Source: a virus
Taxonomy: Duplodnaviria > Heunggongvirae > Uroviricota > Caudoviricetes
Length of the DNA stretch: 6,294 nucleotides
Direction: 5' to 3' (one strand)
Virus record (IMG/VR): IMGVR_UViG_3300011952_000016
Shown here piece after piece: positions 1-4,760 of the stretch. A program made the position numbers and the translations under genes. Under the pieces are notes generated by a model. That model searched no databases. It saw nothing but the letters and a program-made list of their open reading frames with translations, and was not told the DNA's origin. Every line of letters starts with the position of its first letter. The first letter of the stretch is position 1.

Positions 1-398
1 GAGCGATTCCGCCTGTTTACCGATATCGCCATAAAGCGCGGCCAGTGATTCATCAACGCGGGTGAGCGACAGCGTAAAATCAATTTTTCGGGGTGTGCCG
101 TCTGCAAAGAAAATACTCCCTGTTTCACTCACCTTACTGATGACATACATGCCGTAAATCATGCCGGTGCCATCCAGCAACGGCCACGCCCGACCTTCCT
201 CTGCCATCAGCCTGAGCGTGGTCATCGTCAGCTTGCCGCCGGTCAGTTCGGGATAAAGCACACCGGCCAGCGTGATGTTTTCCTCGCCAACGCCGAGAAA
301 CTGGAATTTGACGGCCAGCGATAATCAGATTCACGCTGCATGGTCTGGTGTGGCAACGTCTGGCGCATAAAAACAAACATACCTAACGCGAGCATCAT
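1..398 (-). pseudogene. U: P2-type tail protein gpU, 5' portion (3' end lies beyond window start); reading frame broken near 300-305
   Basis: ATG at 398-396 sits 9 nt downstream of GGAGG (412-408) and 15 nt after the tape-measure stop (TAA 415-413). It encodes MMLALGMFVFMRQTLPHQTMQRESDYRWPSNS, then reaches TGA at 245-243 after 51 codons. The rest of a gpU-like sequence (KFQFLGVGEENITLAGVLYPELTGGKLTMTTLRLMAEEGRAWPLLDGTGMIYGMYVISKVSETGSIFFADGTPRKIDFTLSLTRVDESLAALYGDIGKQAESL) is in a different frame, open from 324 down past position 1. Confidence 0.75.
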
Positions 399-412
399 TT
401 TTCGTCACCTCC

Positions 413-2640
413 TTAACCGTCATGCATCATGCTGGCACGGGCGCGCGCACGTTTATCCCGCTCGTATTTTTCGAGCGCATCCTGTAACTGGCGGTCAAGC
501 TGTGTCCCCGGCGCAGTACCACCCGTCAGGCTGATGTGATATTCGTTTTTACTCTGGTCCACATAAGAGCGGCCAGCCGGTGCCGTAACCGGCTGATAAG
601 CCTGATAACCTGCATAAGAGCTGGTCGCCGGAATATAACCACCGGTGCCATACGTGGCGGCATGAGTTCTGGCGGCGGTCTGGTCAAGTGTGTCTGACTC
701 TTTGTTGATAACACCGAGTTTTTCCAGTACCCAGTCAATACCGCTGCGCAGTTTGTTGAACGCATTAAGCGGCAGCATCAGCGCGTCAGCCAGTGCCTGC
801 CCGAACATGACGCCCGTGTCACGGCAACGGTTCAGGGTGTCCTGGGTGGCTTTGACCGGGGCAATCAGGTTTTTAAACCACTGCCACGCGGCCTGTAACT
901 TTTCACCCAGCCAGTTAAACAGCGGCTTAAGTGGCGTGAACAGTTCCCCCACCGGCGCAAATGCCGCTTTCAGCCCTTCAACCACACCGCCAAAGAATGC
1001 GCTGACAGGCTCCCAGTATTTACGGATAAGCAACGCCCCGGCGACAATGGCAGCCACCACGGCCACAACCGGCCAGCTAATCGCACCGATGGCCGTCATA
1101 ACGGCACTACCAACCGTCGTGAAGATTGCCCCCATTGCGCCTGCTGCCGCGATAATGGCATTGATGCCGGTGATAACCGGCCAGGCTACAAGGCCAATGG
1201 CACCGATGACACCAGTCAGCGCCAGTGCACCGCCGGCAATGATGCCGATGGTTGACGCCAGTGATTTGTTTTTCTGTATCCAGCCGTCGAGTTTTAACAC
1301 ATACTTTGTGGCCGTCTGCGTGAGCTTACGCAGTGCGCCTTCCTGCTGGTCAAACAGGTCAGTCCCCACCGCCTCATAAGCGGACTGAAACTCCTTAAAG
1401 TCGCCGCCGAGGTTATCCTGCATGATATTTACCAGCTCGGCGGTCTTCCCGTCTGAGGCTTTAAACGCAGCAGTCAGTTTGTCCAGCTTTCCGGTTGAGG
1501 CGGCAGTCATCAGCACGGCGGCGGCTGAGCTGGCCTCCTCCCCGAAAATAGTTTTCATGTATTCAGCCTGCTGGGCAGTACCGAGCCGGTTTTTCTCAAA
1601 ACTGGCCTGCATTTCTTTCAGAATGGTAAATATTGGTCGGGTATTCCCCTTACTGTCTGAGGTTTTCACGCCAAGCTCTTTGAGTGCATCCCATGCTTTT
1701 CCCGTTGGTGCCTGCAGGCGACTTAACACGGCACGGCTTCCCGTCCCCNNNNNNNNNNNNNNNNNNNNNNNNNNNNNNNNNNNNNNNNNNNNNNNNNNNN
1801 NNNNNNNNNNNNNNNNNNNNNNNNNNNNNNNNNNNNNNNNNNNNNNNNNNNNNNNNNNNNNNGCGCACCGGCTGCATCATCTGCCGAGGCTGCGGTATTG
1901 TCGCCGAGCTGGCGCGCCTGCTTGCGTAGCGCGGCCATTTCGGCGGAGTCTTTTGCCACACCGAGCACAGCCTGCAATTCTGAGTTTTTCTGCGCAAACT
2001 CATAACCGGGCATCAGCAGCTTAACTCCGGCCATCGTTCCCGCAGCTGCAATCCCCACACCGGCAGCGCCCACTGAGGGCATATTTCCGGCCAGTTCCTT
2101 TCCTGCCTGATAACGCTGTTTGACTGCGTTAAGTTTTGCCTGTTGTGCACTGACACGCGCCAGCGCGTCACGCTGACGGTTAAGCTGTGCGGTGGTTTCA
2201 CTGATACGGTTTTTCAGTCCCTGCTCATCATGTGCAAGATTGCGGGTATTAATTCCCACAGCGGCCAGTTCCCGCTGCTGGCGTTTAACGGAATCTGTCA
2301 GGCGGTTATATTTCGCCTGTAAGTCCTCCGCCGCACGCTTTGCGGATTCCAGCACTTTCGCCTGAGCACGGGTCGGACGTTCGGTGTTTTTAAACTGTGT
2401 GGCAAGGGCTTCGGCTTCCTGTCGAGCCTTTTCAAGTGCATGACCAGTCACGGCGAGCTGTGCACTGGTCTTGCGGAATCCCTCAATACGGGATGCGTGA
2501 CCGTTCAGCTCGCGCAGTGATTTTTGTGTTTCCCGGATATCCCCCGACAGCGACTTGCTCGCTGTACGGATGGATTTAAACGGGCGGGATGCCTGGTCAA
2601 CAGCCCTGAGCAATACCTGTAATTTTACATTGTTACTCAT
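413..2640 (-). CDS. T: phage tail tape measure protein (P2 gpT-like), interrupted by a 114-nt N-run
   Basis: ORF 1723..2640 starts MSNNVKLQVLLRAVDQASRPF and is coiled-coil-like and rich in A/Q/R/K. ORF 413..1729 continues with a glycine/alanine-rich hydrophobic segment and the C-terminal part, ending TAA 415-413. The two pieces are separated by N 1749..1862 and are in different frames across it. The ATG at 2640-2638 overlaps the E' stop (ATGAGTAA). Confidence 0.9.
1749..1862. other. run of 114 ambiguous bases (N), a gap or masked segment inside the tape measure gene
   Basis: Directly visible in the sequence. Flanking coding frames differ by one nucleotide, so the N length is not the true length. 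Confidence 1.
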
Positions 2641-3116: not shown

Positions 3117-3685
3117 TCACAGGCCGATATTGCGGCGGTGTTGCTCCAGCCGGTCGACGCCGTTCACCTTCTCAATCATGTTGATGGTGTCGATTTCGAC
3201 CAGCTCCTTACCGTCCATCGTCAGCCGGAAATAGGTGCAGACCACGGAGATTTTCGACTCGGTGTCTTCTCCCTGTTTACCCTCGCCGGTGTCGATTTCT
3301 TTCTGACGTCCACGCATGACCACTTCAACGGCCACCGTTTCGCCGGTATCGTCGCGCTGGTAAGAGCCGGTAAAGCGCAGCGGCACGGCAGTCGCACCCC
3401 ACTGCGTAAGCACCAGGTCATCNNNNNNNNNNGTACGGCATCCACACCGGTTGCGGCGTAAAGCTCCCAGATAACCGAATCCGGGAAGCCCCCGAGCGAC
3501 CACTCCATTGACAGCGCATCGTCATCAAGGCCGAGATCTACCGGGGCGCTGCCGTTCATCCCCGCACCGCGATAGTTTTCGAGCTTACGGGTCAGTTTTG
3601 GCAGCGTGACGGACTTTGCAACGCCCTGATAGCTGTAGCCGTTCAGAAAGACGTTCATTAACTTGAGTTTGCGCGGCATTGCCAT
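3117..3685 (-). CDS. FII: major tail tube protein (P2 FII-like), interrupted by a 10-nt N-run
   Basis: ATG 3685-3683 is preceded by GGAG overlapping the FI stop. The N-terminal 84 aa are MAMPRKLKLMNVFLNGYSYQGVAKSVTLPKLTRKLENYRGAGMNGSAPVDLGLDDDALSMEWSLGGFPDSVIWELYAATGVDAV. The C-terminal 101 aa (DDLVLTQWGATAVPLRFTGSYQRDDTGETVAVEVV...VDRLEQHRRNIGL) follow the N-run in another frame, ending TGA 3119-3117. Confidence 0.9.
3423..3432. other. run of 10 ambiguous bases (N) inside the tail tube gene
   Basis: Directly visible. The frame is not preserved across it (one base more or less would join the two halves). Confidence 1.
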
Positions 3686-3697
3686 CGGTCAGGCTCC

Positions 3698-4760
3698 TTA
3701 ATTGCTGTTAACCGAGGTGACCAGATTTGCCAGGTATTTATCGGTAATACGCTGGCGCAGGGTCAGGTTTTCAAGAGGAGGCACCGGGGTATAGTCGTTG
3801 AGGGTTTCCGCATCGTTGGATCCTTCGCTGAACCAGCAGGTCGCATCCACGATATAGCCGTTTGTTTTCAGCTCACGGAATTTGGCATTGATGCCGTCAA
3901 CGATGTCGCGAATCAGCGTTGCGGTGATGGGCTTGTCCACCGCCCACATGTGCGCCTCAGCCATCGTGTCGGCCAGCACCTGCGCGGTGCGGGTGTAGTT
4001 TTCAAAGAGGAACAGCGGGTCATCAGAGCAGGTACGGTTACCCCAGAAGCGGAAACCGTCGCGGCGAATCAGCGTAGTGACGCCTGACTCGTTAAGCAAG
4101 TCAGCATCGGTGCCGGACTCCTGCAAATCCCAGAATACAGAGGCGCTGATGCCGGTAACACCGTTCACCCCGACATTGGACAGCGTTTTATGCCAGCCCT
4201 GCTCCTGGTCGATTTTAGCGCGCAGCCCCAGTGCACGGGCGGTGGCATACGCGGTGACGGTGGTACTGGTGACCGTATCCCATGCGAGGAAATCCGGCCA
4301 GATGACCATCAGCTCACGCTGGCTGAAATTCTGGCGGTAGGCTTTCACCTCGGAAATGGTCTTACAGCCCCATGCGCTGATATATCCGAAAGCGCGCAGC
4401 TTCTGACAGACTGATGCCAGTGCAACAGCCACCTCTTTGGTATCCAGCCCCGGCACACCAAGAATACGCGGTTTAACACCGGTCGTCGCCGGTGCCGTCT
4501 TCCACACGTACGACAACGGTGACCGGTTTTGACTGGTCGGAGATGGCCTGCAACGATGCCGCCAGCGTGCCTTTTTTACCGGCCTTTGCAATTGCGCTCT
4601 GCACATTGGTAATCAGTACCGGTTTATTGAGGGGGAAGGTTTCGACATCCGCATCGCTGGCCGTACAGACCATGCCGACAATGGCCGTGGATACGGTGGA
4701 AATGACGCGGGTGCCGTCGTTAATCTCCAGCACCTGCACGCCGTGATGATAGTCACTCAT
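3698..4760 (-). pseudogene. FI: tail sheath protein (P2 FI-like) with a disrupted reading frame (apparent out-of-frame internal deletion)
   Basis: ORF 4473..4760 encodes the sheath N-terminus [38 protein letters not shown]...[10 protein letters not shown], then RC and a stop (TAA 4475-4473). The remainder ([40 protein letters not shown] ... [14 protein letters not shown], stop TAA 3700-3698) is in a second frame beginning at about 4477. The total span is 1063 nt, which is not a multiple of 3. RBS GGAG at 4772-4769. Confidence 0.8.

Follow-up and report, generated by a model that had tools for sequence, protein, structure and literature searches.

A 25-nt loss interrupting gene U in a P2-like prophage tail cluster as a possible product of draft assembly

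In the tail of phage P2, gpU is the tube initiator; according to a cryo-EM preprint (10.64898/2026.09.14.750843), six copies of it are found on the trimeric hub formed by gpD, where they provide the link to the inner tube and seed it. Also described as a tube initiator is the pyocin R2 protein PA0626 (the 'ripcord'), which is like gpU in being encoded between the tape-measure and hub genes. In fact, residues 8-126 of intact gpU are homologous to the C-terminal domain of PA0626 (residues 159-286; PDB 6u5b, chain h), with an E value of 3e-13. However, PA0626 has an extra N-terminal ripcord domain, which P2-type gpU lacks. The locus that we describe here is a phage-type cluster and in this respect is unlike pyocin R2, whereas its likeness to P2 is close, as gene U is found in the same place (right after gene T), is preceded by the same ribosome-binding site, and shares an identical stretch of 32 codons at its 5' end. 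What sets this gene apart from P2 gpU (PF06995, Phage_P2_GpU) is the absence of 25 nt and the resulting shift of the reading frame, with no full-length protein encoded.

The window, by which we mean the whole stretch of DNA that was analyzed (6,294 bases), carries on its minus strand the late tail cluster of a P2-like (Peduovirus) prophage in the order H-G-FI-FII-E/E'-T-U. Included are the 3' part of the fibre gene H (6283-5471), gene G (5471-4893), the sheath gene FI (4760-3698), the tube gene FII (3685-3117), E/E' (3060-2633), the tape-measure gene T (2640-413), which is interrupted by a run of Ns at 1749-1862 and directly adjoins U on its upstream side, and most of gene U (398-1). The remaining ~19 C-terminal codons of U are outside the window, as is gene D, whose position would fall beyond window position 1. 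With gaps counted, the identity to many P2-like phages and Escherichia coli prophages is ~94-96%, and mismatches alone amount to ~3% when the intact relative E. coli AVS0578, which spans the whole window, is taken for comparison. The programmed -1 frameshift site of the P2-type E/E' pair (GGTTTTTTG, ~2814-2806, minus strand) is intact, and the E' frame is open to 2633.

Gene U begins in the expected manner, with a Shine-Dalgarno sequence (AAGGAGG, 408-414, minus strand) that lies 9 nt upstream of the ATG at 398-396, shares bases with the gene T stop codon (TAA, 415-413), and is identical in all aligned relatives. From this start, a 51-codon ORF (243-398, minus strand; product MMLALGMFVFMRQTLPHQTMQRESDYRWPSNSSFSALARKTSRWPVCFIPN) consists of 32 authentic gpU codons (MMLALGMFVFMRQTLPHQTMQRESDYRWPSNS), whose residues are identical to those of P2 gpU, followed by 19 out-of-frame codons and a TGA at 245-243. 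The recognizable remainder of gpU (KFQFLGVGEENITLAG...) is displaced to the -1 frame relative to the ATG (1-324, minus strand; KFQFLGVG... onward). Preceded by a TGA at 327-325, this second frame runs for 108 codons without a stop to the window edge (LSLAVKFQFLGVGEENITLAGVLYPELTGGK...GKQAESL), and the two frames overlap over 324-246. Both had been described in the initial annotation, the former as an ORF backed by a ribosome-binding site and the latter as open from 324 to position 1, and both are indeed present in the list of ORFs and in the translation. Its naming of the gene as gpU is likewise borne out, on the strength of the 32 identical residues and of a PF06995 profile search, in which the 3' fragment scored 106 bits (profile positions 34-120; cut-off 27.5) and the gpU of an intact relative 150 bits. 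Taken alone, the 5' fragment stayed below the cut-off, at 22.2 bits (profile positions 1-30). The gene in the window is thus matched to the family, but not as the single continuous ORF of ~159-160 codons, covering the whole domain, that the family has. Of no consequence here is that the P2 peptide given in the annotation (..RIGKSDAFQF..) is one residue off the real one (..RIGKRDAFQF..).

As to the nature of the break, alignment with P2 and its relatives confirmed what had been proposed as an out-of-frame deletion of 25 nt and located it at 305|304 (junction 302-305, minus strand), the placement being ambiguous by 2 nt (CC). Exactly 25 nt, which read CCCGTATCGGTAAACGGGATGCCTA in the closest relatives, are absent by comparison with P2 (NC_041848) and with E. 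coli F5505-C1, TUM9757, EC21Z-144, and AVS0578. The loss covers residues R33-A39 along with most of residue 40 and shifts the frame, such that Ser32 is the last residue to be read in the gpU frame from the normal start, and translation terminates 19 codons further on. Read as written, the gene is predicted to be dead, broken by the missing 25 nt to a stub of 51 residues, and this stub would be unable to initiate a tube, so no tail would be buildable from it. Among P2 and about 90 relatives that were compared, 84 clean ones were used for measuring the spacing between two anchors around the site; this was 52 nt in all 84, as against 27 in the window, and none of these relatives shares the exact junction. 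We note that an exact loss of 25 nt inside a gene that is otherwise 97-99% identical is, judged by these alignments, not a chance difference. Moreover, both flanks match the relatives perfectly up to the junction, the 3' part has a single mismatch over 304 nt (303 identical, 99.7%) with E. coli F5505-C1, in which U is intact, and U as a whole has no private substitutions. Four to five polymorphic positions are held within the lost 25 nt, and the rest of the 5' part of U is invariant among the relatives.

The junction has so far been seen in this window alone. When a 96-nt query across it was searched against 5,426 complete E. coli genomes and GenBank phages, matches were returned only as two pieces separated by 25 nt. 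Similarly, the exact 28-mer had no match in IMG/VR, and the exact 24-mer had none in GTDB genomes (one per species, 185,579 species) or in JGI metagenomes. An exact protein look-up with the 51-residue ORF and with gpG found neither on record.

Global alignment with AVS0578 revealed six structural anomalies in the 6.3 kb, among them the U lesion. Three of the others are also private deletions on the minus strand, these being an in-frame loss of 12 nt (TGGTGAAACCGG) in the tail-fibre gene H (5696|5697; microhomology of 1 nt), an out-of-frame loss of 104 nt in the sheath gene FI (4483|4484; 2 nt), and an in-frame loss of 24 nt, again in FI (3798|3799; 1 nt). The claim that the lesion in U is the second in an essential tail gene to be out of frame consequently holds, with the 104-nt deletion in FI as its counterpart. 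All four deletions are flush, with a microhomology of just 1-2 nt. As for their occurrence elsewhere, the 12-, 104-, and 24-nt junctions had no match in IMG/VR, neither FI junction was found among the top matches in complete E. coli genomes, and the 104-nt junction was not found in GTDB genomes or JGI metagenomes. The site in H falls within the HxH-repeat-rich C-terminal part of the fibre.

The same stretch has two clear signs of misassembly. In gene T, a run of 114 Ns (1749-1862) stands for what is ~332-334 nt in relatives, so that the length of T is off by ~220 nt and its reading frame cannot be judged. This run is either a scaffold gap of the wrong size or such a gap combined with a further loss. 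In FII, an insert of 50 nt (3391-3440, minus strand) forms a non-collinear joint that includes 10 Ns (3423-3432). Here, the contig before the Ns ends in ...GGTGTGGATGCCGTAC, its end at the joint is TGCCGTAC, and the Ns are followed by 32 nt (3422-3391) that encode DDLVLTQWGAT. Since this peptide is a divergent homolog of the DSVIWELYAATGVD stretch already present before the Ns, one piece of FII is represented twice and in two allelic forms, and the scaffold is therefore non-collinear at this point. Going by these two forms, the sample probably contained a second P2-like sequence.

Smaller lesions are lacking. No indels of 1-3 nt were found in the global alignment with AVS0578, and no premature stop substitutions are present in the window. 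At the 4,723 positions with coverage from 20 or more relatives, private substitutions number ~15, and four of these are clustered beside the FII joint. In FI, these are divided as 4 non-synonymous to 1 synonymous and elsewhere as 1 to 4, although the counts are too small for significance. The four non-synonymous changes in FI are found at 4645 (A>V), 4541 (A>S), 4257 (A>V), and 3822 (E>G), and the FI proteins of relatives are 99-100% identical. Such changes point to either relaxed selection or base errors at low coverage. The decay of bacterial pseudogenes proceeds mainly through small indels and stop codons, with many times more substitutions than indels. With its four mid-sized deletions free of flanking repeats, its lack of small lesions, and its very short terminal branch, the window fits this pattern poorly.

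The independent draft genome of phage vB_EcoM-720R8 (ON470606.1) has a run of 14 Ns (1957-1970) that falls inside the same 25 nt of U. This is one of five N runs in that draft, with the other four positioned away from the remaining lesions of our window, and the probability that one would fall within these 25 nt by chance is ~0.4%. The coincidence suggests that the U site is a recurrent contig break point at a polymorphic patch. In strains with two P2-like prophages, the polymorphic positions in the 25 nt make such a recurrent break plausible. As for a switch of nearest relative exactly at the lesions, which is a signature of chimeras, mosaicism extends throughout the P2-like phages, and none of the blocks of the window has a near-identical relative.

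How the 25 nt came to be missing can be considered in several ways, and the edges of the lost segment bear most directly on the one put forward in the initial annotation, namely that replication slipped from one direct copy of TTCCAG to another. This, or the same event between copies of TTCC, would be a version of a real deletion rather than an additional explanation. The window does read AAATTCCAGTTTC at the junction, and a hypothetical ancestor with the phenylalanine codon TTC would have had two copies of the 4-nt repeat TTCC, spaced by exactly 25 nt. However, the left edge in all relatives is AAATTCCCGT, and the right edge is GCCTTTCAG, GCCTACCAG, or GCCTATCAG, but never TTCCAG in any of the 84. 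At the codon in question, TTC is found in none of these 84, with TTT, TAC, or TAT in its place (TAC or TAT in those relatives that match the downstream flank of the window, CTCGGCGTTGGC), and a synthetic TTC ancestor was matched exactly by none of 1,301 E. coli records. The TTCCAG at the junction was thus created by the deletion itself, and the relatives, having no second copy, offer no direct repeat of at least 4-5 nt. What the real relatives provide is only a shared C or CC (1-2 nt), which is about what a random junction yields. We have accordingly rejected the TTCCAG or TTCC repeat, and slippage of this kind appears very improbable. Still less credible is that the split is functional, either through a programmed -1 ribosomal frameshift as in E/E' of P2 or with the two halves acting as separate proteins. 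It is true that the downstream frame of U is -1 relative to the start and overlaps the upstream one, and that P2-like phages use such a frameshift in E/E', whose site is intact here. Yet no slippery heptamer of the X XXY YYZ type was found in the overlap (324-246), the downstream frame has no start backed by a ribosome-binding site, eight conserved codons would still be missing, and no relative examined has this arrangement, all being single-frame. For these reasons, a functional split of U was likewise rejected, and we give it next to no weight.

This leaves the question of whether the loss occurred in phage DNA at all. We lean, by a little, toward a flawed or chimeric draft assembly as the source of the U deletion. 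The loss would then have arisen while the sequence was assembled, be it that short contigs from a repeated or thinly covered prophage region were joined imprecisely, that uncovered stretches were dropped from the consensus, or that two related prophage copies were woven into one scaffold, and the real gene U would probably be intact, or else the deleted allele would be one of two copies in the sample. Speaking for an assembly origin are the four flush deletions, whose ends share little or no homology and which occur within 6.3 kb together with two ill-fitting N gaps, as well as the want of 1-3 nt indels, the ~15 private substitutions, and a gene U otherwise devoid of decay. Against it, the perfect match of both U flanks up to the junction is just as in a real deletion, and the 4:1 ratio in FI hints at relaxed selection in a dead sheath gene, though errors from low coverage look the same. 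Moreover, de Bruijn assemblers that leave gaps of 10 Ns (SPAdes, Velvet) normally need read support for each junction within a contig, and this favors a real molecule carrying the deletion. Alternatively, then, the 25 nt may truly have been lost from a defective prophage of the P2-like type (which may be one of two copies) while it was losing its tail genes, with U a recent pseudogene, and we consider this a serious possibility, albeit one short of an even chance. Cryptic and defective P2-like prophages are common in enterobacteria, and their frequency favors this account, as do the flush junction with its perfect flanks, the second frameshift in FI, and the FI substitution ratio. Also, a 6-bp hairpin (TCCCGT-ATCGGTAA-ACGGGA) lies within the lost segment and perhaps helped its loss; in a possible fold of the ancestral strand, this segment is extruded between AAAT and AGTT. 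However, the ancestral fold is no better than that of shuffled sequence (z = -1.5, not significant), and the hairpin is a possible contributor only. Further against a real deletion are that the junction is in no other genome or metagenome searched, that clear assembly defects are found in the same window, and that four deletions of 12-104 nt with neither small indels nor stops, and with so few substitutions, would be a very unlikely outcome of stepwise decay. A further possibility would be that the four deletions (12, 24, 25, and 104 nt) are real but stem from a burst of double-strand breaks in the prophage, with U among the genes killed in a single episode. The cause could have been, for example, restriction, CRISPR self-targeting, or abortive induction, and the repair would have been a microhomology-poor end joining in an enterobacterium without classical NHEJ, but we consider such an episode very improbable. 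On balance, flawed or chimeric assembly seems to fit somewhat better than stepwise prophage decay. The initial annotation had taken the lesion as biological, and in light of the N runs, the non-collinear joint, and the three other private flush deletions, an origin in assembly is at least as likely.

Which of these holds has a bearing mostly on annotation, and beyond that the importance is small, though it is mildly unusual that mid-sized deletions whose ends share little or no homology should cluster like this. If the deletion is real, the prophage would be unable to build tails, with both the tube initiator and the sheath dead, and the proper annotation would be a defective prophage in which U is a pseudogene. 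In the case of an artefact, the frameshifts in this record ought not to be taken as biological, and an intact, inducible prophage may lie behind them.

Set beside known cases, the window would resemble the defective or cryptic P2-like prophages of enterobacteria if its lesions are real, as structural genes of its P2-type late operon (U and FI) are inactivated. Remnants of this sort typically owe their form to IS insertions, large deletions, point frameshifts, and stop codons. In contrast, only mid-sized flush deletions, and no small lesions, are found here. The likeness to the artefacts of draft assembly at repeated prophage regions extends to the N runs of wrong length, the FII stretch that occurs twice in two allelic forms, the flush junctions with little or no end homology, and the short blocks between lesions (0.3-1.5 kb), with the difference that the U junction itself has no Ns or other direct mark of a join, and the link to such artefacts is circumstantial. 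Altogether, the features of the window are no different in nature from those of a frameshifted prophage gene or a defect of draft assembly.
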